From a virus, in the IMG/VR virus record IMGVR_UViG_3300029288_000158: 64,000 nucleotides of DNA; one strand, given 5' to 3'. Positions within the stretch are counted from its first letter, which is position 1. Each line of letters starts with the position of its first letter. The notes under the pieces were generated by a model. That model was not told the origin of the DNA. It searched no databases and saw only the letters and a list, made by a program, of their open reading frames with translations. Below are positions 21,882 to 48,942 of this stretch, in pieces. A program made the position numbers and the translations under genes.

Positions 21882-22652
21882 ATGAGTAAAGACAGTCTTG
21901 GCGACAGAATGAAAGATATTGAATCGAGAACGGAATATTTTCTTCCAAGGAGAACGTATACGCTTCTTCGTTTCGACGGCAAAGCCTTCCACACCTTCAC
22001 CAAAAGTTGCGAACGACCATTTGATTTTAATCTTATGGAGTGTATGCAGACCGCTTGTTTGGAAATTTGTAAAGAAGCCCAAGGTGCGGTTATTGGTTAC
22101 ACTCAATCCGACGAAATTAGTTTGGTTCTTACAGATTTCACAGAACCAACAACTGAGGCTTGGTTTGATGGAAACACTCGTAAGATTCAATCAATTGGCG
22201 CTTCAATTGTTACGAACGCTTTTAATAGAGTTTGGATGAACAAATATGCCGAAGACTATTTGAAGAATGGTGGAAGCATTTCGGATTTTCTTAACAACAT
22301 TAAACTGGCCGTATTTGATTGTCGTGTTTGGTCCACGTCCGACCCGTGGGAAGTATTTAACACCTTTCTTTGGCGTCAGAACGATGCTACAAGAAACAGC
22401 ATTCAAATGGTTTCTCAAAGTATGTTTTCTCATAAGGAGCTTCAAAATAAATCATGTCCGGTTCTACAAGAGATGATTTTTCAAAAAGGACAGAACTGGA
22501 ATGATTATCCAAACGAATGTAAACGCGGAACTTTTGTTTACAGGAAAGATGGAAGTTGGTTTGTTGATAAGAACGGCCCAATTCTAACACAAGATAGAAA
22601 ATGGTTTTTTGATAAACTTCCTTTTATTCCACAACCTTCTTTTGAGGATTAA
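21882..22652 (+). CDS. tRNA-His guanylyltransferase (Thg1)-like 3'-5' nucleotidyltransferase
   Basis: Thg1 signatures LLRFDGKAFHTFTK and GYTQSDEISLVL, and length. Confidence 0.8.
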   Translation: MSKDSLGDRMKDIESRTEYFLPRRTYTLLRFDGKAFHTFTKSCERPFDFNLMECMQTACLEICKEAQGAVIGYTQSDEISLVLTDFTEPTTEAWFDGNTRKIQSIGASIVTNAFNRVWMNKYAEDYLKNGGSISDFLNNIKLAVFDCRVWSTSDPWEVFNTFLWRQNDATRNSIQMVSQSMFSHKELQNKSCPVLQEMIFQKGQNWNDYPNECKRGTFVYRKDGSWFVDKNGPILTQDRKWFFDKLPFIPQPSFED

Positions 22653-26847: not shown

Positions 26848-27384
26848 ATGACATTTCCTGATTTCATTTTACACATTCAAGAAAAAGAAAAACAGAATTT
26901 TCCAATTTCTTACAATTTTGAAACTGTCATTTTTGAAATTGACAATCAAAATCTTTCTGTTTGTGAAGAAATTTTTTTCAGATATGTTTCTAACAACGGA
27001 CCAAAGATTGAATTTCGCAATGTTCAATCTAAATACATTCTTGAGAAAGATTTGATTGTCATGCCGAGCATCAAACATTTCAAATCATCTGAAGAATACT
27101 ATTACATTTTGTTTCATGAGTTAGCACATTCTACAATTCACGAAACTCGACTTGATAGAAAAATAGCAAACCAAGATGAAGCATTTGAAGAGATTGTCGC
27201 TGAACTTTCTTCAGTAATAATAACTTCAACCCTTTTTAATTACATTTATAAAGATTCGGATTCTTTCATTCGCCATTATCTTAACCACACTGATATGATG
27301 GGAAATAAAAATTTAGACTTGATGATAGGGCGCAATATTGCGGAGTCTGTATCTTCTTACATTTTGAAAGGAGGTCTGCCATGA
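26848..27384 (+). CDS. zincin-like metallopeptidase, paralog of the ArdC C-terminal domain without the ArdC-N domain
   Basis: HELAHSTIHETR and EEIVAELSSV parallel HELVHSTGHEKR and EELVAEIGSC of ORF 1-780. Confidence 0.55.
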   Translation: MTFPDFILHIQEKEKQNFPISYNFETVIFEIDNQNLSVCEEIFFRYVSNNGPKIEFRNVQSKYILEKDLIVMPSIKHFKSSEEYYYILFHELAHSTIHETRLDRKIANQDEAFEEIVAELSSVIITSTLFNYIYKDSDSFIRHYLNHTDMMGNKNLDLMIGRNIAESVSSYILKGGLP

Positions 27385-27961: not shown

Positions 27962-28000
27962 AAATCTCTTGACTTTCGTCCTTGGAAAAAGTATATTAAC
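27962..28000 (+). promoter_or_regulatory. sigma70-like promoter (TTGACT 27970, N17, TATATT 27993)
   Basis: Consensus hexamers. Confidence 0.55.
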
Positions 28001-28036
28001 TCTAAGGACGGTTGTTTATTTTTCCAAGGAAGATAC

Positions 28037-28733
28037 GTTGAAAATCTATTCCAAGTTCCATGATTACTACGATTCGGTTCTGAAATTTTCTCAGGATGAT
28101 GATTGTGTGTATATGCGGGAGCCAAAAGAATATCGGTTTGATGAAAATATGGCCGAAATTAAATCTTCGGGAACCATTCGTTACTACATGAACGAAGAAT
28201 TGTTTTTTATTGGTTTTTGTGGGAAGATTTATCCAGTGTTTCAGCATATTTTTGATGATAAACTTGAAAATTTTCACATTGGAATTGATAACGAAATACT
28301 GATTGAAAAAATTAAAAACTGTCACACAGACAAACGAATTTATAGGTATGACAATCTTAGCAGTCCTTGTCTTGAAAGACTTTTGGGGCTTGAGACTGAA
28401 AAATATAATTGGTTTAAGAATCGAAAGTTTACCAATCCGTTCACGCTTGAAGATTTCTTTCTTAAATATGAAATCCCGGTGTTTGTTTTTAAGAACTTTA
28501 TTGATGGGCAAAAGAGAAAATGGGTTCTGGAAACAAATCCGTGTTTGAAAGATTATGATTTCCAAAGAATTTTCGATCCATATTCTGCGTTCCAAGAAAT
28601 TTATATGTTCTTTAATTCGGTTCTGACAAACGTGAAAACTCCAAAGATGCCGGTTGGCAGTGATAAAGTCATTGCCGAAAGCAAAGGGTTTGACAAGTGG
28701 AGTTTTCGGAAAATTGGAGAGAATTCTAAATGA
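28037..28733 (+). CDS. hypothetical protein (TTG start downstream of the promoter; track ORF begins earlier)
   Basis: AAGGAAG then TTG at 28037. Confidence 0.45.
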
Positions 28734-29203
28734 AGATTGATACTATTTTTATCATTCAAGAAGATGCTGTTGGTGTTTGTTTGCGCCAAAACGACTTTTC
28801 TTTTTATGGTTCGTGCGTATCAAAATATATTAGAGCAAAAGAAATGAGAGGACAAAAGAGATTAACGTGTGTAAATTCCAACACAATCAATCTGACATAT
28901 GAAGAAAAGGTTCAGCATGTGATTGATAGATTGCTGACATTTAATATTGATTCTCCGAATGATGATTTCGCGGATGTTCAGAATAGACTGGACGGAGAAT
29001 ATACGGGTATATTTTTTGATATACTCGCAATACTTCTTTCTAACCATAAGAAATTATCGAGTAGGATTTTTTCAAGATATAAAGAACTTGGTACTGGTGA
29101 AATTATGATGCTCCGGGCATATGGGCTTCCTGAATACAGGAAATCTAAAAACGGATATGTTGAAAACGAAGTCAAGCAAAAACTATTGGAGAACATAGAA
29201 TGA
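28730..29203 (+). CDS. hypothetical protein
   Basis: Track ORF. Confidence 0.5.
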   Translation: MKIDTIFIIQEDAVGVCLRQNDFSFYGSCVSKYIRAKEMRGQKRLTCVNSNTINLTYEEKVQHVIDRLLTFNIDSPNDDFADVQNRLDGEYTGIFFDILAILLSNHKKLSSRIFSRYKELGTGEIMMLRAYGLPEYRKSKNGYVENEVKQKLLENIE

Positions 29204-29454
29204 TGAAATATAAATACAATTTCTTCCGAGTTCTTGGTTTTCCTTGGGAGCTTCTTGAAAAATTTAATAAAATTTCTTTTGATTTTTTGAAACCCCGTAT
29301 TGGAAACGTTTTGGCGGCTATTATTTGTTCTGTTGTATTTACAGCAATTGTGCTTGGTCCAATCTTGCTTATTCCCGACAAATATATTTTTCTTTACGTA
29401 TTTCCAATGATGATATCAGGATGTATTTACGATGAGACAAAATCTCTTAGGTAG
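29200..29454 (+). CDS. membrane protein (2 TM)
   Basis: Track ORF. Confidence 0.5.
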   Translation: MMKYKYNFFRVLGFPWELLEKFNKISFDFLKPRIGNVLAAIICSVVFTAIVLGPILLIPDKYIFLYVFPMMISGCIYDETKSLR

Positions 29455-29701
29455 AATCTTTTTCCTTTTCTTTTCCATCTTCTTTCCAACGAGTGATGGA
29501 ATATGTAGCTGTTGTCGCACCAATCAATGTAGTAATCAAAGTTAACGCCGTGGTAGGTATTTCTTGATTCTTAAAAAAACTAAAAAAGCAAAGTACAATT
29601 CCAGCAAATATAGTTGACAACATTGACAATCTTTTAGAAGACGACCCGTTGTTGTTTTCACGAAAGAAATCCGCAATAAAAGAAATAAAATTTTTAATCA
29701 T
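29447..29701 (-). CDS. small 2-TM membrane protein (holin-like?) on minus strand
   Basis: Two hydrophobic helices and a charged C-terminus. One of few minus-strand genes. Confidence 0.4.
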   Translation of the reverse strand: MIKNFISFIADFFRENNNGSSSKRLSMLSTIFAGIVLCFFSFFKNQEIPTTALTLITTLIGATTATYSITRWKEDGKEKEKDST

Positions 29702-29741
29702 TTCGCACCTCGCTTAGTTATTTATTCAAAAGGAGAATAAA

Positions 29742-32168
29742 ATGGGAACATATTCAGATCGAGTTAAGAAGATTCTTCAACTCGCAAGGGACGAAGCAAA
29801 GAAGCTTGAAACAGATTACATTGGAACGGAACATGTTCTTTTGGGTCTGATTGCGGAAGGAAATGGAAAGGCGATTTCTGTTCTTCAGCAGCAGAATGTT
29901 GATATTTATAGTCTTCAGACGAAACTCAGGACGGCTCTTGCGAGTGGCGGTTTGGGTTCGTTGGTTCCAAACATTCCGCTAACTCCAAGAGCAAAGAAGC
30001 TTTTGGAATTTGCGGTTGAAGAAGCTCAAAATCTTGGTCAGGAAGTTGTTGGAACTGAGCATCTTCTTTTGGCAATGTTTAAGGACGAAAGCAGTCAAGC
30101 ATTTACGTTTCTTTCTTCTTCGGGAGCTGATTACGAAACTTCCAAAAAGTTGGTGGAAGACGGAAATCTTCCGAACAAGCCAATTTCAAATGGTGAAGGT
30201 TCTTCGGAAACTAACTCAGCAGCATCCGGAGAGAAATCTAAGACTCCGATTCTGAATCATTTCTGCCGGGATTTGACTCAAGCAGCACGGGAAGGAAAAC
30301 TCGACCCGATTGTTGGAAGAAATTCGGAAATTGAGAGAACAATTCAGATTCTTGCCCGTAGAAAGAAGAATAATCCCGTTCTTTTGGGCGATGCAGGTGT
30401 TGGGAAGACTGCCATTGTTGAAGGTTTGGCACTTAGGATTGTTTCTAAATCTGTTCCATACATCCTAAACGACAAGCGAATCATGGCTTTGGATATGGCT
30501 TTGCTTGTTGCTGGAACTAAGTATCGTGGACAGTTTGAGGAACGAATCAAGGCAATCATTCAAGAAACAAACAAAAACAAGGACGTGATTTTGTTCATTG
30601 ACGAAATCCACGGAATTGTTGGTGCTGGGGATTCTTCAGAAGGCAATATGGATGCTGCGAACATTTTCAAGCCAGCTCTTGCGCGAGGAGAACTTCAGTG
30701 TATCGGAGCTATCACTTTTGACGAATACAAAAAGTCAATCGAAAAGGACAATGCGCTTGAGCGGCGATTCCAGCCAGTTCAAGTTGACCAACCGAGTATT
30801 CCCGAATCCGTTTTGATTCTCACAGGGTTGAAGGAAAATTACGAAAAGCACCATAATGTTTATTACACGGACGATGCTATCGAGTCGGCAGTTCGTCTTT
30901 CGGAACGGTATATTACCAATCGGTTCCTTCCAGACAAGGCGATTGATGTGATTGACGAAGCTGGCGCAAGGATTCGTATTTCTTCTATGATGACTCCTGA
31001 AATGAGCGAGCTGGAAGAGAAGATTGAAACCTTGAAGAAAGAAAAGGTTGACCTTGTATTTAACCAAAAATACGAGGAAGCTGCCGAAGTTCGCGACCAG
31101 CTCGAAAAGGCCGAGAAACGATTGTCGGATATTAAGGAAGGGTTTAAGAACCAGGAACGACTGGAAGTCAATGGCGACGCAATTGCCGAAACCATTTCTA
31201 AGATGACCGGAATTCCTGTTACCAAATCTTCCGCCGACGAAAACGCCAAGCTGAAGACTCTGGAAGAAACTTTGAAATCCCGAGTTGTTGGTCAAGATGT
31301 TGCTGTTAAGGAAATTTCTAAATCTATTCGTCGCAACCGTGCTGGACTTCACAACAACCGTAGGCCAATTGGCGTTTATATGTTTCTTGGGCCTACTGGA
31401 GTTGGAAAGACCGAATTGGCGAAAGCGTTGGCTGAAGAAGTTTTCAACACCAAGGAAAATCTGATTCGCATTGACATGAGCGAATATGGAGAGAAGTTTA
31501 ATGTTTCGCGTTTGGTTGGTGCTCCTCCGGGGTATGTTGGATATGAAGAAGGCGGAAAGCTGACGGAAGCCGTTCGGAAGAAGCCGTATTCTGTTGTGCT
31601 CCTGGATGAAATTGAAAAGGCGCATCCGGACGTTTGTAACATTCTTCTTCAAGTGTTTGATGACGGACATTTGACGGATTCTCTTGGGCGAAAGGTGAAC
31701 TTCAAGAACACCATTGTCATCATGACTTCTAATCTCGGAAGTCGCGAATTGAGCAAGGGAAATCTTGGGTTTGGTTCTGGAAGCAATGATGTTTACGAGA
31801 AGCTTCGTCGGAATGTTGACGCTGAACTGAAACGCGCTTTTGCTCCAGAATTCTTGAATCGTTTGGATGGCTCTTTGATTTTCCATCCTCTTGAACAAGA
31901 ACATCTGGTTGAGATTGTTGGAATCCAGCTTCGCGACCTCGAAGCTCGTCTTGCTGAAAAGAAGATGAAGATTTCTTGGGACCGAAGTGTGATTGAACAT
32001 CTTGCGAAGGTTTCTTATGACCCAGCTTTTGGTGCTCGTCCTTTGAGGAGGAACATTCAAAATCTGATTGAAGATGCTTTGGCGGATGAGTTTTTGAATG
32101 ACACTTTTGTTGAAGGCGATGAGATTAAATGCTCATACGTTGACGGGAATGTTGTTCTGAGCAAGTAA
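29742..32168 (+). CDS. clpC: ClpC-like class III AAA+ unfoldase (two Clp_N repeats, D1 and D2 AAA modules, UVR-like middle domain, LGF ClpP-docking loop)
   Basis: Walker A GDAGVGKT and GPTGVGKT, N-terminal Clp_N repeats, loop KGNLGFGSG. 808 aa. Confidence 0.9.
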
Positions 32169-32175
32169 ACAAATA

Positions 32176-32216
32176 GGCTGGCGTGAATTTAGGTTTGCGC
32201 CAGCTTTTTCTTTTTA
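32176..32216 (+). terminator. rho-independent terminator
   Basis: ggctggcg/cgccagc plus a T-run. Confidence 0.65.
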
Positions 32217-32227
32217 ATAGGATTGAA

Positions 32228-32890
32228 ATGAACATAAAGAAACTTGAACCATATAATATTTATTTTGGTTTGTTTGACTGCCAATATTTTGTAACGTCAA
32301 CTCTCGTTCGTATTCAAGAGTATTACGAGAGTTCGTCCGATTTGTTTAGAAATAAAGTATTTGATTTGGATTCTTACATGGATTGGTATGCTTTGACCCA
32401 TGCCGGAAAGTTTTCATATTTTGAAGATTGGGTTGGATTTAACATTCCGGGAGAAGTAATACAAAAATGGGCCAACGATTTTTCGTCAATTGGATATCGG
32501 GCAAAAGAAAAGGAACTGCTATCAAAGCTCCCAATAGATTCAAAAGAACGATGGTATTTTATTGCTACACACAAATCGGCTGATAATTCGGTGTCTGCTC
32601 ATGAAATTGCTCATGCTCTTTGGTATCTTAATGATGAATACCGCACAGCTTGTCAGAAAAATATTGAGCAGATGTCTGTTGACGTCAAAGAAATTGCGAC
32701 AACTTATTTGAAATCTCGAGGATATTGTGATGCTGTAATTGATGACGAAATCAACGCATATTTCGCTACAGGAGATGTTGAAGATTTGAAAAAGCGCGTT
32801 CAAATTTCCGAAGATGACCTAAAAAAGATTATTGGAATTTTTGGCGCGGAATTTAACAAGTATTCACAAAATATTCATAAACAACTTTAA
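32228..32890 (+). CDS. putative HExxH metallopeptidase-like protein
   Basis: SAHEIAHALWYL motif. Function inferred only from the motif. Confidence 0.4.
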   Translation: MNIKKLEPYNIYFGLFDCQYFVTSTLVRIQEYYESSSDLFRNKVFDLDSYMDWYALTHAGKFSYFEDWVGFNIPGEVIQKWANDFSSIGYRAKEKELLSKLPIDSKERWYFIATHKSADNSVSAHEIAHALWYLNDEYRTACQKNIEQMSVDVKEIATTYLKSRGYCDAVIDDEINAYFATGDVEDLKKRVQISEDDLKKIIGIFGAEFNKYSQNIHKQL

Positions 32891-32904
32891 ACAAAAGAGT
32901 CACA

Positions 32905-33444
32905 ATGTATTCCGAACAATCTCTAAAAGCGGACTTGTCGTCTATTGGTTGTTATTTGGCTGTTTCTTTGAACGAACCAAATTTCAAAAAATACAAAGCT
33001 ATTAAAGGTTTTGTGGAAGATATGAGTTCGTTCCTTGTTGTTGATTATACAAACTCCGGCTTTGATTATTTTGAAGAACACGAACGTCTGAAATATCTTG
33101 TTAGAAATCATAACAATCGTTCGGAAATTAAATACCGAATTGGAATGTATGGAAATATTTACAATTTTGTAGATTATCAAAACCAAACTTCCGACAAATG
33201 TTTCAACTACAAAATCAAAAATATCTTGAAGATTGTTAACAAGATTCTATCAAACAGAGATTTGCTGTGGACTGATGTTGAATTGTTTCTTACATATTCT
33301 AAATGGCCCAAAGAATCATTCAAACAAACTGATTCAATCTATTTCAAATTCGTTCCATATGAAAATGACGAGTTCTTCTACACAAAACACTCGGTTGAAG
33401 CAATCAAGAAATTTATTCAGTTTAGATTGGGGATTGAAGAATGA
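32905..33444 (+). CDS. hypothetical protein
   Basis: Track ORF. Confidence 0.5.
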   Translation: MYSEQSLKADLSSIGCYLAVSLNEPNFKKYKAIKGFVEDMSSFLVVDYTNSGFDYFEEHERLKYLVRNHNNRSEIKYRIGMYGNIYNFVDYQNQTSDKCFNYKIKNILKIVNKILSNRDLLWTDVELFLTYSKWPKESFKQTDSIYFKFVPYENDEFFYTKHSVEAIKKFIQFRLGIEE

Positions 33445-34109
33445 CTAATACAAATAAAGTTATTATCCCGAAGTGTGAGGTTCTTTTCAACGCAGATTCA
33501 ATTTATTGGGTTGGGTTTGTTGCGTATGGGAAACTTTCCAAAGACCAAACTAAAGAAGAATGGATTGGATTTTCACACGAACCGGATTCAAACTTTCAGA
33601 ATATTATCTGTCTGAAAACCAAACCCACAAAGCACAAACAACAAATCATATTGAACAAAACGGGAAACCAACATATTTCTTGGCAAACAATGTTTCTTAT
33701 TCATCAATATGGAACAGAAGAAGATGTTAAGAAAATGATTAAACTTATTAGAAAAGATGCGTTCTTTGTTATTCAATACTATCGGCTCTTTGGTTACGAC
33801 GGTTCTCTGGATGATATAATTTTGAATTCGTCTTTGTTCTATATGATTGAATTTCCGCAGATTTATTTCTCGAGGCCAATCAAATCAAAAGAACAAATCA
33901 AATCTAATGTGTTTTCCGAAAAGATTAACTACGAAACTCTTCAAAGTGTTTGTGGTGTTGTAAAAGGAAACCAGCCTGTTTTTGTAAATGACGATGGTAA
34001 TTTTGTCATGAAAACCAATTCGGTTCCGTTTACAATTGCTAATGGTCGTCAACTAATGACAATCAATGAAGAATGTTTGAAAATTTTCAATGAAAGGAAA
34101 ATGAAGTGA
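33441..34109 (+). CDS. hypothetical protein
   Basis: Track ORF, ATGA-coupled. Confidence 0.5.
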   Translation: MTNTNKVIIPKCEVLFNADSIYWVGFVAYGKLSKDQTKEEWIGFSHEPDSNFQNIICLKTKPTKHKQQIILNKTGNQHISWQTMFLIHQYGTEEDVKKMIKLIRKDAFFVIQYYRLFGYDGSLDDIILNSSLFYMIEFPQIYFSRPIKSKEQIKSNVFSEKINYETLQSVCGVVKGNQPVFVNDDGNFVMKTNSVPFTIANGRQLMTINEECLKIFNERKMK

Positions 34110-34344
34110 CACAATTCTTTATTTGGGTTTTGTCTATATTTCTAACATTTTTCGGGTTTCTTTCCTATCTTATGTTGGTAGCGTAAATATTCACAACATC
34201 CGGAACTACAGTTATAACCGACAGAAAATCATTTTTGATTAGTTTGATTCCGTTCGGTTTTCTATTGTTGTCAATCAAACATTCGGATGATTTTAATGGA
34301 GTAATACGTGCGAGTAGAAAAATTCAAACTTGGTGGAACAACAA

Positions 34345-34548
34345 ATGATTTCTAAAGAACGCCTTGAAGAAAATTTGATTCTTATTTCGAATCATCTGAG
34401 TTCAATACAGAATCAACCGGAAGACGATTCGTTGTTGTTTAGATTCTTGGAATTGGAAAAATATTATTCAGACAAAATCGCCATTCTGGAGCATTATAAA
34501 CTCTTACTTAACCCCGATACAATCAGGTTTGATTGGCATAACCAATGA
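34345..34548 (+). CDS. hypothetical protein
   Basis: ATG at 34345. Confidence 0.45.
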   Translation: MISKERLEENLILISNHLSSIQNQPEDDSLLFRFLELEKYYSDKIAILEHYKLLLNPDTIRFDWHNQ

Positions 34549-34811
34549 ACGATTTATCTTATTTCTTAAAAACACAGTTCAAAGATGTTGGTGAAAACGA
34601 ATTAGATTTGGAGAAAGTTTACAAATCGTGGCGAAAAGCAACGTGGTTTATTTCTCAATGGAATGATGAATATACCATTGTCAAACGTGAAGGGACGAGA
34701 CGACAATTCAAAACGAAAATTTCCAAAAAACAAGCACTTGAAATTATAGCGAAAAAGAAATTAAGTTGCGAACAAAATTCAATATTTACATCAGGAAGTT
34801 GTTGGAGGTGA
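34545..34811 (+). CDS. hypothetical protein
   Basis: Track ORF. Confidence 0.5.
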   Translation: MNDLSYFLKTQFKDVGENELDLEKVYKSWRKATWFISQWNDEYTIVKREGTRRQFKTKISKKQALEIIAKKKLSCEQNSIFTSGSCWR

Positions 34812-34814
34812 AGA

Positions 34815-34991
34815 ATGGCTTGTTCTAATTGTAACGGATATTATCATTGCGGGTGCGACATTATTAATATGCTAAAAGAATTAAAGCAAAAGAAAATGGA
34901 ATTAGAACTTCTTCAATACAAAATTAAAGAACGAACAGAAGAATATAATAGATTTAATGAAGGGCATTCTCAATTACCGAGGGATGAATGA
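34815..34991 (+). CDS. 58-aa Cys-rich protein (CSNCNGYYHCGC)
   Basis: GGAGGTGAAGA then ATG. Below the track cutoff. Confidence 0.45.
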   Translation: MACSNCNGYYHCGCDIINMLKELKQKKMELELLQYKIKERTEEYNRFNEGHSQLPRDE

Positions 34992-35371
34992 TTTCAAAAG
35001 AAGAACTTCGTGATTTATTAAACGACTCTCAAACTTATGATTTTGGTGTTGAGTTTCACTACATACCAATCTCGGTTATTGAATCGGCTGAAAATATGTA
35101 TGACCTATACTATTCAGGCCCAAGAAAAATAAGGTTTTCTAAAGGTTACGTTCAAATCAAACTATTAGAAGAACTAGATGCTTCTAAAATTGATTCTTAT
35201 GTAGATGAAATATATGAACTACTTAAAGATGATGTTAGAAACGAAATTCAACAAGCTTTTAAAAATTTAGAATTGTGCGCCGAAGATATAAAATATTTTG
35301 ACCGAAAAGAAAACAAAGAAATATTCAAACAGTTTCAAGATGAAGTTCGTGCGAATGCCGGAGTTCTGTAA
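34988..35371 (+). CDS. hypothetical protein
   Basis: Track ORF. Confidence 0.5.
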   Translation: MISKEELRDLLNDSQTYDFGVEFHYIPISVIESAENMYDLYYSGPRKIRFSKGYVQIKLLEELDASKIDSYVDEIYELLKDDVRNEIQQAFKNLELCAEDIKYFDRKENKEIFKQFQDEVRANAGVL

Positions 35372-35527
35372 GGAGATAGTATGATGTGGAACGTGCTTTG
35401 GTGTTTTAATATTTTTGCTTTCTTTATGTTTGTAATTTTTTCCAGTCTGGCTGTGAGAAATTATACAAGATTTGGAAAATAACAAACGCCAAAGCACTAT
35501 TAAACATTATATTTGTGGAGAGTAAAA

Positions 35528-35698
35528 ATGAAAAAGATTGAAGACATGAATTTTGATGAATTGGTAGAGCATAGTTCTCAATTGATTCATTCTGGACTTT
35601 TAGAAGAAGGTGGAAAATGTTTGAAATCCGCTGTTTATATTTCTCTGTTGAATACTATTGTTTGGCGACGAGCTATGGATGAAAAGGAAAAGAAATGA
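35528..35698 (+). CDS. hypothetical protein
   Basis: ATG at 35528. Confidence 0.45.
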   Translation: MKKIEDMNFDELVEHSSQLIHSGLLEEGGKCLKSAVYISLLNTIVWRRAMDEKEKK

Positions 35699-36222
35699 TT
35701 AACATCTCTGAACTTCCAATTGCGTTTTATTGTAAAGCATGTAAAACAAATTTCCGGCGCGAAAGTCTAAGTTCTTATCCATGTAAATGCCCGGAATGTG
35801 GTCAAGAAAGAACATCAAGTGGTTTCTACAGACTACCAACTTTGAAGTTTTACAAATCACCTCCAGGTTCTTACAATTTGCTAAACTCGGCAGATAAAAA
35901 GTGCCAATTCACGTTCTATTCTCTTGAAGGTTTCTCTATTTCTATTTTAACGGAACCTGAGAACTTTGAAAATTTTGAATTTGACTTTGATGACTACCTT
36001 GGTCAGATTCTTAGAATGATTGAAGATTTTGATTTCTATTACATGGGAGACAAAGAGAAAATTCAAAAGTTTTATGATGAAGTTGTTTCTCCTAACGCAG
36101 AACAACATCAAATCAACTATCTTAAAAACAAAAAAGAAGAGTTGTTGATTGAAATGTGGAAGTTGAATAGTCAAAGGAATTCATATATTTCTGATTTGGA
36201 ATCTTTGGAACCTACTGAATGA
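35695..36222 (+). CDS. zinc-ribbon protein (CKACK...CKCPECG)
   Basis: Track ORF. Confidence 0.5.
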   Translation: MINISELPIAFYCKACKTNFRRESLSSYPCKCPECGQERTSSGFYRLPTLKFYKSPPGSYNLLNSADKKCQFTFYSLEGFSISILTEPENFENFEFDFDDYLGQILRMIEDFDFYYMGDKEKIQKFYDEVVSPNAEQHQINYLKNKKEELLIEMWKLNSQRNSYISDLESLEPTE

Positions 36223-36701
36223 ACTTTTTCTATCTTGATGAAAATCCAGAATTGTGCGCTCATTACATGGTTAATAGTCATGTGGTAAAAATGATTTTGG
36301 AACATTGTCAACTTCTATCAACGACTCAAAGTTTGTTTGGAATTGAATCTCTCTACAAACCAACCCATGTGAATCATCCATGTGCTATCTGGTGTCGAGA
36401 AAGTTTGTCAAATTATAATCTTCTGATTCAATATACTAAAGAGATTTGTAAAGAGTATACTTTCAGATACGAGAAAAGCCACGCTTGCGAATCGATTCTT
36501 TACTATTGCGAACATGTAAAACCAGATATTAAAGATGTTGGTGTTACAAAAATTGCTTTAGCTATGCCGGATTACTGTAAACTTGATAATCCAGTTGACA
36601 GTTACAGAAATTATTACATGAAAGAAAAAGTTCACATTGCTACATGGAAGAAACGCGGAAAGCCCGATTGGTTTGAGTTTGAAACCAAGGAATCTTTATA
36701 A
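36219..36701 (+). CDS. hypothetical protein
   Basis: Track ORF. Confidence 0.5.
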   Translation: MNFFYLDENPELCAHYMVNSHVVKMILEHCQLLSTTQSLFGIESLYKPTHVNHPCAIWCRESLSNYNLLIQYTKEICKEYTFRYEKSHACESILYYCEHVKPDIKDVGVTKIALAMPDYCKLDNPVDSYRNYYMKEKVHIATWKKRGKPDWFEFETKESL

Positions 36702-36887
36702 ATGCTACCTATTATCAAATCTCGGTGTGTTGTAGTTGAGAAAACTTCAAAGAAAACAAAATTCAAGAAATTTGGAACGGGTTTTATTTTTGAATTGGAT
36801 TGTCAAGATTTTAATATTGGTGATATTGTCCATTTTGATTTTATAAGCAGACGAAAGTGGTTTGTTTGTGGAATGAACAAAATATGA
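36702..36887 (+). CDS. hypothetical protein
   Basis: Track ORF. Confidence 0.45.
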   Translation: MLPIIKSRCVVVEKTSKKTKFKKFGTGFIFELDCQDFNIGDIVHFDFISRRKWFVCGMNKI

Positions 36888-37069
36888 AATTAGTTTTAAT
36901 GTTTAAGCCAATAAAACATCCGGCTTGGCTTGGAAAAAATTCAATAAGATGTGTTTGGTATCCAGGTATTGGATTTCCTTCTGTTTATTATTTGAATTTT
37001 AATTTTGACGATTCATTAAAAATTGAAAAAGAATACAACCACCGTTGGCGGAAAATAATAAAAGTATAA
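36884..37069 (+). CDS. hypothetical protein
   Basis: ATGA-coupled ATG at 36884. Confidence 0.45.
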   Translation: MKLVLMFKPIKHPAWLGKNSIRCVWYPGIGFPSVYYLNFNFDDSLKIEKEYNHRWRKIIKV

Positions 37070-37145
37070 GACAACATAATATTATTCGATTTATAAGTCA
37101 TGTTTTTCGTGGTTGTATTATACTTGCTTCATGATATTGTTATAT

Positions 37146-37637
37146 TTAAATTTTACAATTACATTTACATTTCCAATGTAGAGAAGAATCAAAAATATCA
37201 ATTCCTATCTGAATACAGATGGTTCTGAGATGCAAAGAACAGATAATTGCTTCAAAATCTATACCATATTCAATACATGTTTTTGACTTGCCGTGTGTTG
37301 AACGGCGTTTAAATGCTGTTCTGATAGTGTTTCTTAAATTTTGTTTTATTTTATATTTCGAATCGGTTGAATATCTTATTCTTGCTCTAGCGGATGCCTG
37401 TTTATTCAAAATAGACTTATGCTATATCTGATATTTTTTAATAATATCTTTGTTATTGTCTCTATACTTTTTCTTTGATTTGTTACACGATTCTTTATTA
37501 TTTTTTCTCCAGATTCTCTTAACTGTATTTTTACACACCTTACAACTCGTTGAATAACCACATTTAATTGTTTTGTCTTTATGGAATTCTGTAACATCTT
37601 TTTCAACTCCACATTTTGAACATAATTTTGTATCCAT
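37146..37637 (-). pseudogene. decayed HNH-type homing endonuclease. The N-terminal zinc finger CSKCGVEKDVTEFHKDK...CKVCK is intact, a frameshift sits near 37410-37420, and the catalytic HNH core is missing.
   Basis: Two adjacent minus-strand ORFs in different frames. The N-terminal module is typical of phage HNH endonucleases. The gene is truncated at its 3' end. Confidence 0.45.
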
Positions 37638-37739
37638 CGCTCCCCCATTGTTATCATACCACCATTTTCCTTGTATTTAAAGTAACCAGCAACAACAATT
37701 CTGTAATAAATCATTAATAACTCCTTCAGCTTCATTACT

Positions 37740-38320
37740 TTCTATTTTTCAAACTGTCATTATTTTCTATTTTGTGTTATCTAAAGAAATTACAAATATA
37801 AATTACTAACTTTGTTTTTCCTGAGAACGTTGAACAATATAAATAATCTAGATCTAAAAGAAACCATAACTAAATTTTATTATAACTCGTGCGATAATTT
37901 AAAAACACATATGTTTGTGAAAAATTCTAAAATAACATCTGAAAAATAATTATTCCAAAGATAAAGTAATCTTGTAGGCTGGGAGACTAACCTATGGGAG
38001 TTTTTAGTTATCTATATCACTGTCCTTAAGAAAGATACGACGAAATAAAAGTCTGGAGAGAAAACCAGTCCACTGTTTCGTAAGAGTGTGATTGAAAGTA
38101 ATGAATTTATAATTTGTTACTAGCCTTGTGCAGAAGATAATTAGAGACGAATTGCTGAACGCAGAGTAATGAAAAACTCCAATTAAGTTTGGAATAAGTA
38201 ATGAATCAGCAGTTAGGGAAGGAATGGGTGAATTCTATCCAGCCTCAAACAAAAAATAAAACCAATCAAATCATCCAACCGACGAAGCTGGAGCGTAGCG
38301 GAAGCAAGGAGATTTGGATT
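37740..38320 (+). other. about 580-nt non-coding block with GC-rich complementary segments; candidate structured RNA or intron/IS remnant
   Basis: No ORF over 35 codons on either strand. aggctgg at 37978 pairs with ccagcct at 38241. It sits next to the decayed HNH gene. Confidence 0.3.
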
Positions 38321-38542
38321 AAGTGAGCGAAGCGAACTTGAAAATCACAACCAAATTCAAAACAGAAATCATTTCAAAAACATATTTAAGATTTGTTCAC
38401 TTGTATTTCCGTTCAGATTTATCTCTTGATTATTACCCATCAATCAAAAAAGTTCATGAAGTATTTTCAGCAACTCCGTGTTTGTTACATGATGAAAAGT
38501 TCAGACGAATTCGTAAAACATTAAACATAAGGTAGAAACAAA

Positions 38543-39760
38543 ATGTCAAATACAATGGCAACAATCGAAAAAGTAGTTAAAACATATCCAATTGAATCAG
38601 CAGATAATATTGAAATGACTCAAGTTCTTGATTACCATGTAGTGACCAAGAAAGGTGAATTCAAAGCTGGTGATTTTGTAATTTACGCAAGAGTTGATTC
38701 TATTTTTCCAGATGGTCTTTCCGAAGAAGATAAAATTAAACACTCCGAACTAAAGAAAATTAAGAAAGAACATTCGGATAATGTAGATATTGATAATCAA
38801 ATTTCAGAAGTTCTTTCGAGAAATACTATTCCTGAATTTGAATTTCTAAGAAAAGATAAATTTACAATTAAAGCGAAGAAATATTCCAAATTTAGAAATG
38901 AACTTGGAAACAAAATTATTTCAGAAGGGATTATTTTTCCTACAACTATTCTGAAAAACAAACAATATATCATTGAAGGAAAAGACGTAACATCTCTTCT
39001 CGGAATCACTAAAGTTGTTGAGGATGAAGAAGAAATTATAACAGAAGAAAAAGAAAACAAGATTAAAAAGTTTCTATTCAAATATAAACTATTTCGTAAA
39101 TTGTATTTTATTTTCGCACCTAAGAAGATTTCCGGCAATTGGGAGTCTTGGCTTCCGGCTAAATCTGATGAGGAGAATATTCAAAAACTATTTTCAAAGA
39201 TTGTTTTTAACCATGGTAGAAATAATTATGTTGTCACTGAAAAACTTGAAGGTAGAAATATTTCTTTCTACAAATATGAAACAAAATCTTGGTTTGGTAA
39301 GAAAGTTAATTATGGAGTTTGTTCAAGAAATCGTCACTTGCCAAAAGATGATGGAAGTGATTTTTGGAGTGCGGTTAAAGATAATGATTTTCTAAACAAA
39401 CTTAAAAATTGCGAAGGAAATATTCTCGTTCGTGGTGAAAATTGCGGGCCAAAGATTCAAGGAAATATTTACAAACTAACAAAAGATAAGATTTTTATCT
39501 TTGATGTTTATAATATCAAGAACCAACGTTTTTACAACTATCAAGAAACTGTTGAATTTTGTAATAGATATGGATTTGAAATGGTTCCGGTGATTTCTGA
39601 TAATTTCACACTTCCAGAAACTGTTTTAGAATTGCTTGAATTCTCTAATGGCAAATCGGTTCTGTATCCAACCATGAGAGAAGGATTAGTGATTCGCAAA
39701 AAAGATGATTATACGATTTCTTTCAAAGCAAAATCGCCGGAGTATTTGGCAAAGAAATGA
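38543..39760 (+). CDS. ATP-dependent RNA ligase (covalent nucleotidyltransferase superfamily, Rnl2/Rnl5-like with an N-terminal extra domain)
   Basis: Motif I TEKLEG, Ia CSRNRH, III IFIFDV, IV EGLVIRK, V ISFKAKS. Confidence 0.7.
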   Translation: MSNTMATIEKVVKTYPIESADNIEMTQVLDYHVVTKKGEFKAGDFVIYARVDSIFPDGLSEEDKIKHSELKKIKKEHSDNVDIDNQISEVLSRNTIPEFEFLRKDKFTIKAKKYSKFRNELGNKIISEGIIFPTTILKNKQYIIEGKDVTSLLGITKVVEDEEEIITEEKENKIKKFLFKYKLFRKLYFIFAPKKISGNWESWLPAKSDEENIQKLFSKIVFNHGRNNYVVTEKLEGRNISFYKYETKSWFGKKVNYGVCSRNRHLPKDDGSDFWSAVKDNDFLNKLKNCEGNILVRGENCGPKIQGNIYKLTKDKIFIFDVYNIKNQRFYNYQETVEFCNRYGFEMVPVISDNFTLPETVLELLEFSNGKSVLYPTMREGLVIRKKDDYTISFKAKSPEYLAKK

Positions 39761-39776
39761 AAATCGAATTTACCGT

Positions 39777-39911
39777 AGAACAAGCTGGTTTCGAAACATT
39801 TATACTTCGAGGTAATATTCGAATCTCCGGATGGGCGTTATGCGGCGGCGACTTTGATTACAATAAACATAATTTTCCAGAACGACTTTACAAAAAACTG
39901 AATTGGTAAAC
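39777..39911 (+). CDS. small-protein superfamily member (MKIEF...FPERLYKKLNW), 44 aa
   Basis: ATGA-coupled to the ligase gene. Shares N- and C-terminal motifs with at least 4 paralogs. Confidence 0.5.
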
Positions 39912-39942
39912 AAAAATTTTTTATTTTCCAAATTCTTTCCAC

Positions 39943-39971
39943 TTGCCTTGTAAAAATAAAAACAGTATATT
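39943..39971 (+). promoter_or_regulatory. class-II promoter (TTGCCT-TGTAAAAATAAAAACAG-TATATT); near-identical spacer to the promoter at 59720
   Basis: Hexamers plus a shared spacer. Confidence 0.55.
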
Positions 39972-40000
39972 TAACTCATCCTCTAAAGAAAGGCTACAAC

Positions 40001-40579
40001 ATGTGTGATTGTGAAAAAACCGAAGAGAAGTCTACACCAATGTCTTCAAAGATTTCCGACTTTTTCCTAAATTCTCGGAAGATTTTTCTGTCTTCGGAAA
40101 TCAACGATAAGGTAGCAGATGAAATTGTCCAGAAGCTAATCTATCTTGATTCTCAGAGTCATGAAGACATTTATCTTTTTGTGAATTCTCCAGGAGGAGT
40201 CATCACATCAGGTATGGCAATTCTTGATGCTACGAATGCTGTTAAGTCGGACGTTCGCACAATCGTTACGGGACAAGCAGCTTCTATGGGAGCAATGATT
40301 CTAGCTAATGGTGCTAAAGGAAAGCGTTACTCTTGGCCAAATGCTCGTATTATGATTCATCAACCATTGATTTCTGGAAACTTTCAAGGAAACATTGTTG
40401 AAATTCAGACGGAAGCAAAAGAGATTGATCGAATGAAGACAACTCTTAATAACCTACTTGCCGAAAAGACAGGTCAACCAATTGAGAAAATCACTAAAGA
40501 CACCGATCGAGATTTCTTCATGGGATCTCAGGAGGCTCTTGAATATGGCATGGTTGATGTAGTTGAAACTTTGATTTAA
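40001..40579 (+). CDS. clpP: ATP-dependent Clp protease proteolytic subunit ClpP
   Basis: Catalytic triad context GQAASMGA (Ser) and MIHQP (His), C-terminal Asp. Collinear with bacterial ClpP throughout. Confidence 0.9.
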   Translation: MCDCEKTEEKSTPMSSKISDFFLNSRKIFLSSEINDKVADEIVQKLIYLDSQSHEDIYLFVNSPGGVITSGMAILDATNAVKSDVRTIVTGQAASMGAMILANGAKGKRYSWPNARIMIHQPLISGNFQGNIVEIQTEAKEIDRMKTTLNNLLAEKTGQPIEKITKDTDRDFFMGSQEALEYGMVDVVETLI

Positions 40580-40643
40580 TGAAACGTTAATTCCCCACTC
40601 ACTATTTCTAATGGGTGGGAATTCTTTTAACAGGAGAATAAAA

Positions 40644-40823
40644 ATGGAAATGGTTACTTCAATAGTTTTAGGATTTCTTTACGGGTGGAATGTAATGCCA
40701 TCTATTAGAGCGTGGGCTGATAAGACATTTCAAAACGAAATTGTTAGTTTTCTAGCTTTCGCAGGAGTTTCTCTATGCGGAATTGTTGTTGGAACTATCG
40801 CATTACATTTTATTGGTTTGTAA
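40644..40823 (+). CDS. small 2-TM membrane protein
   Basis: SD CAGGAGAATAAAAATG. Confidence 0.45.
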   Translation: MEMVTSIVLGFLYGWNVMPSIRAWADKTFQNEIVSFLAFAGVSLCGIVVGTIALHFIGL

Positions 40824-40836
40824 GAAAGGACTATAA

Positions 40837-41190
40837 ATGGCGGCAGCAATTAAAGAAGAAGACCTAAAGGAATATCCAGTAATTTGGAATGACCCTTGTG
40901 GGAAATATAGATTGATTAAAAGAGATGAAATGAACATGGAAATCATTCAATACATGCGACTTGGGGAATCTGGTCGTGGAAGGCAAACAGAAGTGAGAGA
41001 TTGTTGGTGTTCGGTTCCAATGTATTACTCAAGTCTTACATTTGCGTTTAATAAGTTGATTGAATTGAAGATGGCGGAAACAATGTCTACAGGGTTGAAT
41101 GAACTGAAAGATATTGTTGTGGCGTTGAATGATTTTAAGAAAGATTTTGAAGTTCAATACACGAAGAATATCAAAAATGTAATAGGGTAA
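40837..41190 (+). CDS. hypothetical protein
   Basis: Track ORF. Confidence 0.5.
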   Translation: MAAAIKEEDLKEYPVIWNDPCGKYRLIKRDEMNMEIIQYMRLGESGRGRQTEVRDCWCSVPMYYSSLTFAFNKLIELKMAETMSTGLNELKDIVVALNDFKKDFEVQYTKNIKNVIG

Positions 41191-41191
41191 C

Positions 41192-41425
41192 ATGAAAATA
41201 ATAATGAAATTTTTAGATATAGACGAACAACATATACCAACAAGAAAGAAAAATAATAAAGTTTTTGTTGTGGTTGGCAGAATCCGGGAATATCCCGCTA
41301 TATTATATCGTAAAGATTATGATATAGCAACCGAAAATTATAAACAGGAAGATGAATGGTGGAACCGAATAAATAAAAATTTCTACAGACGAACAAAACG
41401 AGAATTCAGGGAACATTATTTTTAA
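41192..41425 (+). CDS. small-protein superfamily member (paralog of 49620-49850: ...EDEWWNRINKNFYRRTKREF)
   Basis: Conserved MKII start and WWN..FY.R.KRE C-terminal motif. Confidence 0.55.
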   Translation: MKIIMKFLDIDEQHIPTRKKNNKVFVVVGRIREYPAILYRKDYDIATENYKQEDEWWNRINKNFYRRTKREFREHYF

Positions 41426-41428
41426 GAA

Positions 41429-41701
41429 ATGAAAATTAAATTAAAATTTATAACAACCGACGAACATTTTACTCTAAAAAAGAATGTAAAATATTTCGTT
41501 CAAGATTTAGATGTTTGTAATTTTCAAAGCGAATGGTTCGTATTTTACTACAACCATCAAACTATGGATTTTCTTCATCTAAATAAAAACATCTATATGG
41601 AAAGAATGAAATATGATTTTTCAAAGTTTTCTAAACAGTTAGGCACTAGTGAAAAATCGGTAAGAACTTTTATAGAAGCAACGGAACTGAAAGGATTTTA
41701 A
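41429..41701 (+). CDS. small-protein superfamily member (MKIKLKF...ERMKYDF...)
   Basis: Track ORF with family motifs. Confidence 0.5.
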   Translation: MKIKLKFITTDEHFTLKKNVKYFVQDLDVCNFQSEWFVFYYNHQTMDFLHLNKNIYMERMKYDFSKFSKQLGTSEKSVRTFIEATELKGF

Positions 41702-41703
41702 TT

Positions 41704-42519
41704 TTGTATCAATCTCCAATTATGTATGTGGGTGGTAAGTCTCGCCTTGTTGATGTTTTGAAACCAATGATTCCACAACACTCTGTTTATGTTGAAGCGT
41801 TTGCTGGTGGTGCGAATCTTTTGTTTTCCAGAAAGCCATCTTACAACGAGGTCATGAATGACTATGATGGCAACTTGATGAATTTTTACAAAGTTGTTAG
41901 AGATGATTTTGAAGCACTAATAAAATCATTTGAATTTGTATTGATTTCCCGTGAGTTGTTTGACGAGTATAAAGAGAAATACAAAACAAACAATTATAAA
42001 TCTGACCTTGAACGAGCACACATCTATTACTATCTGAATCGTGCTGGTTTTGGTGCTGATATGAGAAACCCGGTTTTTGGAACATATATTGAAAAGTCTC
42101 CAAACCTAAATCTAAAAAAAGTAGAACAATCAATTCGTCTTGCTCATTCTCGTTTGTCAAGAGTCATTATTGAACACAAGTCGTTTGAAGAAGTGATGAA
42201 GATTTATGATTCGGAAAATACATTCTTCTTTCTTGATTCGCCTTACAGAAACACTAAGCAATACGCGGTTGGTAATTTCGGAGATGATAAGTTTGAATTG
42301 CTAAGAGATTGTTGTAAAGAATGTAAAGGAAAGTTTCTTTATACAATTAACGACGACGAATATATCAGAGAATTGTTCAAAGACTTCTACATTCAAGACC
42401 ACAATGTTCATTATTGTATTAGTCAGTTTGATGAAGGACGAAGAGATTTCAAAGAACTGATTATTACAAATTATGAAATTAAAAACAAGAATACACTGAA
42501 TAAGTTTGTGAAGAAATGA
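41704..42519 (+). CDS. dam: D12-class N6-adenine DNA methyltransferase (Dam-like)
   Basis: MYVGGKSRL...VEAFAGGANLLF (motif I), FLDSPY (DPPY-type motif IV variant). Start is TTG at 41704 or ATG at 41722. Confidence 0.65.
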   Translation: MYQSPIMYVGGKSRLVDVLKPMIPQHSVYVEAFAGGANLLFSRKPSYNEVMNDYDGNLMNFYKVVRDDFEALIKSFEFVLISRELFDEYKEKYKTNNYKSDLERAHIYYYLNRAGFGADMRNPVFGTYIEKSPNLNLKKVEQSIRLAHSRLSRVIIEHKSFEEVMKIYDSENTFFFLDSPYRNTKQYAVGNFGDDKFELLRDCCKECKGKFLYTINDDEYIRELFKDFYIQDHNVHYCISQFDEGRRDFKELIITNYEIKNKNTLNKFVKK

Positions 42520-45671: not shown

Positions 45672-46451
45672 ATGAATCCCAAGGGTATCATTGCTATTGT
45701 CGTCGCTGCGCTATTTCTTCTGATTCTTCCGTTTAACATTTACTCAATTGACTCCGGAGAACGCGCTGTTGTGCGAACTTTTGGTTCGGTTTCGGGAGTT
45801 TGGGATGATGGTCTTCATTTCAAGGTTCCGTTTACTCAGTCTGTTACGGTTGTCGATGTTCGCACTCGTAAGGCTCACGCTCCAGCATCCGCCGCAAGTT
45901 CGGATATGCAGAGGGTTACTACGGAAGTTGCTCTTAACTATCATTTGAATTCTGACAAGCTTTCGGAAATTTACACAAAGACCGGACTTGATTTGGAAGA
46001 CCGTATTATTGACCCACGTATTCAGGAAGTTGTTAAGGCGGTTACCGCAAAGTATCAGGCCGATAAGCTCCTGAGTCAGCGAGAACTTGTTAAGGGAGAA
46101 ATTGAAAGTCTTCTCAAGCAGTCTCTTCTTCCTTACAACGTAATTGTTGAAGCTGTTCAGATTACCGACTTCAAATTCTCTGAGCAGTATAACGCGGCAA
46201 TTGAAGCAAAGCAGACGGCTGAACAGAATGCGCAGAAGGCAAAGAATGACCTTGAGCGAATTAAGGTTGAAGCCGAACAGAAGATTGCTACGGCTCAGGC
46301 CGAAGCTGAAGCTATTCGTATTCAGGCAAATGCTATTAAGGAACAGGGCGGCGAAGCTTATGTTTCTATGAAGGCCGTTGACAAGTGGAATGGTGTTATG
46401 CCCACTTACATTGGTGGAAATGGACCGATTCCGTTTATTAGCGTTAAGTAA
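45672..46451 (+). CDS. SPFH/band-7 (prohibitin/HflKC-like) membrane protein
   Basis: N-terminal TM, then a band-7 core (SGERAVVRTFG...VPFTQSV...) and an Ala/Glu/Gln coiled-coil tail. GC-richer codon usage. Confidence 0.75.
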   Translation: MNPKGIIAIVVAALFLLILPFNIYSIDSGERAVVRTFGSVSGVWDDGLHFKVPFTQSVTVVDVRTRKAHAPASAASSDMQRVTTEVALNYHLNSDKLSEIYTKTGLDLEDRIIDPRIQEVVKAVTAKYQADKLLSQRELVKGEIESLLKQSLLPYNVIVEAVQITDFKFSEQYNAAIEAKQTAEQNAQKAKNDLERIKVEAEQKIATAQAEAEAIRIQANAIKEQGGEAYVSMKAVDKWNGVMPTYIGGNGPIPFISVK

Positions 46452-48941: not shown

Positions 48942-48942
48942 A

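Follow-up and report, generated by a model that had tools for sequence, protein, structure and literature searches.

Can a bacteriophage carry its own Clp-type unfoldase and protease into the cell it infects, and would the two act together? This question is raised by a stretch of viral DNA of 64,000 nucleotides (nt) from IMG/VR record IMGVR_UViG_3300029288_000158 (the whole stretch, numbered from its first letter, is called the window here). Its clpC gene is followed by a gene for a protein with an HExxH motif, and a clpP gene lies 8 kb 3' of clpC. A preliminary description of the window, made from the letters alone, had reported these three open reading frames (ORFs) and this spacing, and our analysis finds all of them where they had been placed. 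We lean towards the reading that the phage ClpC and ClpP are functional and supplement or redirect proteolysis of the Clp type during infection, and that both genes stem from the lineage of a Fibrobacterota host and persist under selection.

The ClpC unfoldase and the ClpP protease

The features that carry this reading are as follows (aa = amino acids).

29742–32168, + strand: clpC, an 808-aa class-I Clp/Hsp100 unfoldase by Pfam, PDB alignment and motif table
ClpC aa 1 to ~145: N-domain with two Clp_N repeats
ClpC D1: Walker A 216–223 (GDAGVGKT), pore loop 257–268 (KYRGQFEER), Walker B 282–290 (FIDEIH)
ClpC D2: Walker A 550–557 (GPTGVGKT), pore loop 592–601 (GAPPGYVGY), Walker B 618–628 (LLDEIEKAH), sensor 2 763–770
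31764–31772, + strand: codons of the ClpP-docking tripeptide L675-G676-F677 of ClpC
40001–40579, + strand: clpP, a 192-aa S14 serine protease of a Fibrobacterota/Verrucomicrobiota subtype
40283–40285, 40358–40360 and 40511–40513, + strand: codons of the ClpP catalytic triad S95, H120 and D171

The unfoldase had been described as a full-length ClpC with every hallmark of the family, and this holds in all respects except that the UVR match in Pfam is weak (20.1 bits, under the cut-off of 21.5); it sits in the inter-domain coiled coil. The other Pfam domains are Clp_N in two copies (84.5 bits), AAA, AAA_lid_9, AAA_2 (228 bits) and ClpB_D2-small. Bacillus subtilis ClpC aligns end to end (residues 2–806 against 4–803; 839 bits, E = 4e-251), identity to Firmicutes ClpC is ~49%, and the scores against solved structures are 808 bits for Staphylococcus aureus ClpC, 773 for Mycobacterium tuberculosis ClpC1, 681 for ClpB and 557 for ClpA. 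The M-domain between D1 and D2 is long in ClpB and absent in ClpA. Here it is short (aa ~420–468) and gives an ungapped alignment of ~50 aa to the M-domain of B. subtilis ClpC, with Y444 at the position of F436.

In the motif table of both rings, the arginine fingers and sensors 1 and 2 are intact (RRFQ, NRLD, GARPLRR), and variants specific to the window are D217-A218 in Walker A and I324 in GA(I)T, where T325 is kept. The LGF tripeptide aligns with V671-G-F673 of B. subtilis and is kept both in the phage clade (as LGL in P0009) and in Fibrobacteria ClpC. The conserved glutamates E30 (in IGTEH) and E106 (in VGTEH) of the phage protein likewise match E32 and E106 of B. subtilis, reportedly the phospho-arginine sites of the ClpC N-domain (Trentini et al. 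2016). By its sequence, ClpC looks catalytically competent. Degenerate Walker motifs in ClpC and a mutated ClpP triad had been named as findings that would refute the preliminary description, and neither is present. The whole of a 441-aa ORF at 30735–32060 on the minus strand is antisense to the well-supported clpC frame, for which reason it was set aside as a shadow ORF. In PADLOC, ClpC shows nothing more specific than general AAA+ similarity, and ClpP has no match.

ClpP had been called a canonical serine protease. The second half of that label stands: the Pfam family CLP_protease (PF00574) is matched with 223 bits, S95, H120 and D171 fall in invariant alignment columns, and the enzyme looks catalytically competent. 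The word canonical does not, however, since the protein misses the NCBIfam clpP equivalog TIGR00493 (215.4 bits against a cut-off of 308.6), barely passes the subfamily model PRK12553 (229.3 against 228) and aligns to PDB entries only from residue 18–22 onward. Its N-terminus, MCDCEKTEEKSTPMSSK, is acidic and lysine-rich and lacks the axial-loop motif PxVIE...RGER...YDIYSRLL. The N-terminal axial loop of ClpP is needed for gating and for communication with the unfoldase. In the AlphaFold2 (AF2) model (predicted local distance difference test score, pLDDT, 90), residues 1–10 are disordered and no hairpin precedes helix A. Furthermore, two residues are inserted right after the catalytic histidine ('LISG'; HQPLISG compared with HQPLGG).

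The docking pocket is altered as well. At the positions of F63, F83 and I190, which serve docking in Chlamydia ClpP2, the phage protein has F60, A80 and E189. In the numbering of Escherichia coli, where Y62, F82 and L189 correspond to these three residues, F82A, L114W, L189E and L23F occur in phage and Fibrobacteria ClpPs alike, and Y62F is specific to the phage clade.

Both the N-terminus without an axial loop and the insertion after the histidine are common to every Fibrobacterota ClpP among the matches listed and to some ClpPs of Opitutales/Verrucomicrobia; the phage N-terminus 'MCDCEKTEEKSTPM' resembles 'MADCSEKKENQTPEM' of the Fibrobacter ClpPs among these matches. A tree splits this subtype from canonical ClpPs with 100% bootstrap and nests the phage sequences in the Fibrobacteria branch. 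The ClpP pocket is remodeled, and the presumed donor lineage shows the same remodeling. Members of the subtype (the window, L095–L106, L111, L114 and L132) have a cysteine-containing, acidic and lysine-rich N-terminus, HQPLIxG, and A/W/E at E. coli positions 82/114/189. The phage case thereby highlights a little-noticed Fibrobacterota/Verrucomicrobiota ClpP subtype whose docking to unfoldases is apparently unstudied.

Origin, retention and probable role of the two genes

The source is a giant (jumbo) phage with a contig of at least 305 kb, as judged from the window. The exact ClpC protein (P0001) is encoded on a metagenomic contig of 305,169 bp, k141_806084 of ENA ERZ27247363, in which the window corresponds to about 89,391–153,390. 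The window itself has a GC content of 0.35 and consists nearly entirely of short ORFs on one strand. It encodes rIIA (with homologues in 2,535 phage records), two GIY-YIG homing endonucleases, TnpB, a radical-SAM enzyme and a T4-type RNA ligase. Further genes specify an endonuclease V-like glycosylase, a Dam methylase, an SPFH protein, a pentapeptide-repeat protein, Thg1, IF3, a PurZ-like adenylosuccinate-synthetase homologue and two MPTase-PolyVal/ArdC-like zincins. Together with the independent assemblies described below, this setting bears out the earlier view that the locus is phage-encoded. No phage structural genes were found among the ~50 ORFs scanned in the window, and no tRNAs in its 64 kb.

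Megablast of positions 28000–42000 against GenBank phages gave no match, and tblastn of ClpC and ClpP against phages reached at most 56% identity, with many matches on 'phage' records that appear to be host-contaminated. The IMG/VR scan likewise contained no relative above 56% identity, and no close sequenced phage relative was found in the GenBank phage and IMG/VR searches.

In a protein search, the closest relatives of ClpC form a small clade on phage-like contigs (64–79% identity). Cellular ClpCs come next at no more than 58%, and the named ones are from Fibrobacterota (Fibrobacteria, Chitinispirillaceae). ClpP behaves similarly, with phage-like relatives at 63–70% followed by Fibrobacteria ClpPs at 55–60%. 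The nearest cellular ClpC (P0029) and ClpP (P0270), both ~58% identical, belong to one and the same Fibrobacteria metagenome-assembled genome (MAG), GCA_020633825.1, where their genes lie on different contigs. A neighbor-joining tree unites the phage ClpCs in one clade (bootstrap 89, or 100 without P0009) nested among Fibrobacterota-type sequences; its tree neighbors P0020 and P0021 are also encoded on a phage-like contig, of 193 kb. The phylogenetic comparison with cellular homologues that had been proposed as a check thus places both phage proteins with Fibrobacterota. The best-supported explanation is that clpC and clpP were acquired from a Fibrobacterota or Fibrobacterota-like host lineage and kept across a small phage clade, and the host is probably a member of Fibrobacterota.

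The arrangement recurs. It is identical in L006, an independent second assembly, and a common gene order is found in L005, L006, L001, L093 and L091, which come from independent assemblies and samples. In three phage genomes (the window, L001 and L091), clpC is followed by clpP ~8 kb downstream. L001 repeats the whole layout of an MPTase gene, small ORFs, a divergent small membrane ORF, clpC and clpP, with RtcB after clpP; L091, whose upstream region falls outside the retrieved sequence, has the clpC, clpP and Dam part, and L093 the upstream part. Pairwise ratios of nonsynonymous to synonymous substitution (dN/dS) are 0.13–0.16 for clpC, 0.13–0.20 for clpP and 0.21 for the HExxH gene, at dS values of 1.0–2.2 that are near saturation. 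These values and the shared layout indicate that clpC and clpP are under purifying selection and co-retained.

The sequences thus show that the genes are intact, where they come from, that the clade keeps them under purifying selection and that they form separate transcription units; the physical coupling of ClpC and ClpP, the substrates and the timing are inferred. In the proposed mechanism, ClpC hexamers would recognize substrates by the N-domain, either directly or via phospho-arginine or host adaptors, and the pore loops of D1 and D2 would unfold and thread them with ATP hydrolysis. The LGF loops would then hand the chain into a chamber containing phage ClpP. This would give the phage its own or additional Clp-type degradation, for host takeover, counter-defense or quality control of a very large proteome. 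The chamber might be a homo-oligomer of phage ClpP that docks ClpC through lineage-specific contacts; if the donor bacteria have no ClpP other than the loop-less subtype, they must use such docking themselves. Neither clpX nor clpC was found within 6 kb of the subtype clpP in Fibrobacter genomes. Alternatively, the chamber might be a mixed tetradecamer of phage ClpP with a host ClpP ring. A 'Trojan' version of the latter, in which the phage subunit joins the host ring and, with phage ClpC, re-targets or monopolizes the host chamber, strikes us as improbable; if true, a virus would here be exploiting the heteromer principle of ClpP1P2, for instance to destroy defense or housekeeping proteins.

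Three features lie immediately around clpC.

29730–29735, + strand: Shine-Dalgarno-like AAGGAG, 6 nt before the clpC ATG, read from the sequence
32175–32216, + strand: intrinsic terminator after clpC, a GC-rich 14-bp stem followed by TTTTTCTTTTT
32228–32890, + strand: gene for the 220-aa HExxH protein, with HEIAH at aa 125–129 (32600–32614) within SAHEIAHAL

Several observations weigh against a dedicated pair. The terminator folds with a free energy (dG) of -20.1 kcal/mol (z -4.1) and is the sole terminator-like site on the plus strand between 29000 and 41000, and a hairpin with a T-tract, of different sequence, also lies 3' of clpC in L093, L001, L091 and L090. Because it has its own ribosome-binding site and a 3' hairpin with a T-run, clpC looks like a self-contained transcription unit, separate from the clpP gene 8 kb away. 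The lineage at 64% identity (L002, L003) has clpC with no clpP in the 10 kb downstream. Among 80 loci fetched from at least 600 IMG/VR viral contigs with Clp ATPases, clpP lies within 10 kb of the ATPase gene in three, despite the (V/I/L)GF loop that the sampled ATPases keep. As for the fit of loop and pocket, for which a check had been suggested, ClpC does present L675-G-F677, but two of the three ClpP pocket positions are changed. In Chlamydia, ClpC binds ClpP1P2 only via ClpP2, and mutation of ClpP2 F63, F83 and I190 abolishes activity; ClpP1, with V57, M77 and L186 at the pocket positions and no axial loop, binds neither ClpC nor ClpX (PMC10128030, PMC9823225). Direct docking of phage ClpC is thus unproven, given the missing axial loop and A80/E189 of phage ClpP. 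Furthermore, a MecA/McsB-like adaptor, for which a look among the neighbors had been suggested, did not turn up: Pfam detected no MecA, ClpS, McsA or McsB domain in the ~50 ORFs scanned in the window, and tblastn with E. coli ClpS was negative. A similar search with E. coli ClpP and ClpX found neither a second, canonical ClpP nor a ClpX in the window. ClpC might therefore be a lone chaperone or disaggregase or dock host ClpP, and phage ClpP might mix into, modulate or poison the host enzyme, a reading to which we assign a minor though appreciable probability. It is countered by the finding that all Fibrobacterota ClpPs retrieved have this pocket and this kind of N-terminus, which may therefore be fully suited to a Fibrobacterota-type ClpC, and by the common donor lineage, equal divergence and co-retention of both genes in three genomes with the same spacing.

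Other readings would give the genes different tasks or a different source. In PHROGs, ClpP scores best with families labeled 'head maturation protease' (phrog_94, 135 bits). Iyer et al. 2021 (PMC7824862) note that the distribution of most conserved peptidases in jumbo phages follows the virion type and that AAA+ chaperones of phages could help in assembly. It is nevertheless very unlikely that ClpP is a prohead protease with ClpC as virion-assembly chaperone: the NCBIfam head-maturation model NF045542 scores 83.5 bits, below its cut-off of 120, whereas the cellular subfamily model passes, and ClpP is 58% identical to a cellular ClpP. It also stands alone with 192 aa, without scaffold or capsid fusion, among RNA ligase, Dam and small ORFs and away from any structural gene in the ~50 ORFs scanned. 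That the locus is cellular DNA, through host contamination or chimeric assembly, is hardly credible, even though clpC has a GC content of 0.44 compared with 0.35 for the window and many 'phage' database matches to ClpC resemble host contigs. Separate assemblies and samples repeat the gene order, and the locus is flanked by small ORFs packed densely on one strand, together with rIIA, homing endonucleases, T4-type genes and IF3. The GC excess of clpC lies mainly at codon position 1, with GC at third codon positions (GC3) of 0.41 only slightly above the 0.22–0.37 of neighboring genes. Given this distribution of GC, recent transfer and a contaminating or chimeric origin of clpC were rejected. We also give a very slight chance to a role of the HExxH protein as an adaptor or co-protease linked to ClpC. 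Its gene lies directly 3' of clpC here and ~565 nt 3' in L093, and its dN/dS of 0.2 points to purifying selection. However, the strong terminator separates the two genes, and among the related loci the HExxH gene follows clpC only in the window and L093, being absent after clpC in L001, L091, L090 and L002. In other jumbo-phage contexts (L094, L175) it has no Clp gene within 10 kb, and in the huge phage LR756502 (642 kb) it lies ~90 kb from the Clp ATPase gene. It also occurs in the Xanthomonas jumbo phages XacN1 and Xoo-sp13, and its family is large.

The HExxH protein and other neighboring genes

The preliminary description had proposed a metallopeptidase or an adaptor for the HExxH protein. 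The first part is upheld by an invariant HExxH and zincin-like features; the role of ClpC adaptor is not, because of the strong terminator and of synteny in one relative only. Most likely, the protein is an independent zincin peptidase outside the Clp machine. In an alignment of 31 family sequences, H125, E126, H129, Y166 and D173-E174 are invariant, along with an N-terminal RxQEYYES motif. The HExxH residues and a downstream glutamate are putative metal ligands and the tyrosine a putative catalytic residue, and the enzyme is probably active. The distance of 45 residues from HExxH to the glutamate, with a tyrosine 8 before it, matches H686/H690/E735/Y728 of lethal factor. We take ATG 32228 as the start, since the longer GTG start at 32183 sits inside the terminator hairpin. 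The AF2 model has a pLDDT of 96.

None of the 31 members has a Pfam match at E ≤ 1, PADLOC gave no match for the window protein, and a BFVD fold search with its model returned a single uncharacterized match from Megaviridae. There is a weak likeness to M34/ATLF-like gluzincins, namely the Pro-Pro endopeptidases PPEP-2 and PPEP-3 and anthrax lethal factor. A profile search retrieved 3,022 family representatives at 50% clustering. Members (P0121–P0227, P0348–P0485) are ~220 aa long, and some have N-terminal extensions, such as a signal-peptide-like one in P0150. Those of XacN1, Xoo-sp13 and a Woesearchaeota MAG are labeled 'ABC transporter ATP-binding protein', which looks like propagated mis-annotation. 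The locus thus exposes an unannotated zincin-like family of ~3,000 members that is mis-annotated as ABC transporter in cultured jumbo phages.

On its other side, clpC is flanked by two genes that accompany it in relatives.

29447–29701, - strand: ORF of 84 aa, divergent from clpC (head to head, 40-nt gap), two membrane helices predicted
26848–27384, + strand: MPTase-PolyVal zincin-like metallopeptidase (Pfam, 68 bits), upstream neighbor of clpC

The 84-aa ORF has no Pfam, PHROG or PADLOC family match. By tblastn, it is found divergently beside clpC in L001 (70%), L093 (68%) and L002–L004 (54%), and the protein could localize or regulate ClpC. The MPTase-PolyVal gene keeps its relative position upstream of clpC in L001 and L093. 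A second MPTase-PolyVal protein, at 52–780, has an ArdC N-terminal domain of the anti-restriction type; with these two proteins, ClpC, ClpP and the HExxH protein, the early-looking region is unusually rich in peptidases.

Among the remaining genes, those of translation or tRNA type comprise a full IF3 (IF3_N and IF3_C; 48886–49455) and a Thg1-like tRNA-His guanylyltransferase (21882–22652), which, with the T4-type RNA ligase (38543–39760), are typical of huge phages; L001 and L002 also carry tRNA synthetases, RtcB and NAMPT. Both the window (45672–46451) and L091 (14064–15248) keep an SPFH/Band-7 gene (Pfam 127 bits; phrog_200 'lipoprotein') 3' of clpP and Dam. The PurZ-like homologue (61674–62825, - strand) matches phrog_1211, '2-aminooxy adenylosuccinate synthetase', with 164 bits as well as Pfam Adenylsucc_synt, and recurs in L090 (15345–16505) with an HD-domain gene near it. 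It hints that the phage clade may substitute 2-aminoadenine for adenine (Z-genome); the adjoining ORFs have no Pfam match, and the window yielded neither DatZ nor MazZ. Lastly, the window has an IS605-type TnpB (OrfB_IS605 and Cas12f1-like TNB; 15586–16854), and the L002/L003 lineage has TnpB and a serine resolvase directly 3' of clpC (L002 6669–8535), so that this part of the genome has active mobile elements.

Relation to known Clp systems

The claim that phages rarely carry a complete Clp unfoldase and protease pair needs correction. ClpP has been named the most prominent of the patchily distributed jumbo-phage peptidases, and ClpS, ClpA and ClpX are phage-borne as well (Iyer et al. 2021; PMC7824862). 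Agrobacterium phage Atu_ph07 carries ClpX, ClpA, ClpB, ClpP and ClpS (PMC6102473), and recent surveys count clpP/CLP_protease among frequent jumbo-phage genes (PMC13037316, PMC12880540). In agreement with this, the present ClpC matches phrog_4871 over its full length (862 bits), and the at least 600 Clp ATPase contigs of IMG/VR encode proteins of 44–56% identity, many lacking the N-domain and located on contigs of 150–476 kb. An N-domain-less ClpC/ClpE-like double-AAA+ ATPase occurs on the huge-phage contigs L030, L037, L040, L043, L047, L056, L059, L070, LR745206 and LR756502. With ~630–650 aa, 52–56% identity over D1-M-D2, all motifs and the (V/I)GF loop intact and usually no clpP nearby, it looks like a widespread and apparently undiscussed jumbo-phage gene. 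In the literature, we found no description of a phage ClpC-type unfoldase with ClpP and no functional test of any phage Clp pair.

An active pair would mean that the phage clade arrives with an AAA+ degradation machine of its own and could control protein turnover independently of the host, with a bearing on cell takeover by giant phages and on their escape from protein-based defenses. For a jumbo-phage clade without a sequenced relative, the locus also suggests Fibrobacterota as hosts. The immediate impact is modest, because jumbo-phage Clp genes are already published and no host is cultured.

Among cellular systems, the ClpC–ClpP machines of Firmicutes (B. subtilis, S. aureus; PDB 3j3s, 6em8) share the domain order, Clp_N repeats, short M-domain and (V/L)GF loop with the phage protein. 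They differ in that the phage partner ClpP is of another subtype, the M-domain has tyrosine at F436, and no MecA or McsA/McsB was found nearby. Chlamydia trachomatis ClpC–ClpP2P1 resembles the phage system in its Gram-negative-lineage ClpC with tyrosine at the M-domain contact residue, a loop-less ClpP paralogue with altered pocket, and a clpC unlinked to clpP (PMC10128030, PMC9823225). However, Chlamydia has two ClpPs and its ClpC docks on the canonical ClpP2, whereas the phage window encodes the loop-less type only. The ClpC of GCA_020633825.1 has the LGF loop of the phage protein, and the ClpP of the same MAG agrees with phage ClpP in its type of N-terminus, its LISG insertion and its pocket residues A80/W112/E189; their context is cellular, and the phage clade departs from them with F60 instead of tyrosine in ClpP and a weaker UVR/M-domain signal in ClpC.

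The cultured jumbo phages Atu_ph07 and the Rak2-like phages (groups 1 and 2.2 of Iyer et al. 2021) carry phage-borne Clp ATPases and ClpP, as here, and roles in assembly or on host proteins have been suggested for their Clp sets (PMC6102473, PMC7824862). These phages infect Proteobacteria and have Clp proteins of the ClpA, ClpX, ClpB and ClpS types, whereas the present locus combines a ClpC type with a ClpP of the Fibrobacterota subtype. In summary, Clp genes in jumbo phages are already published, and this locus adds a good new example of the same kind of system.

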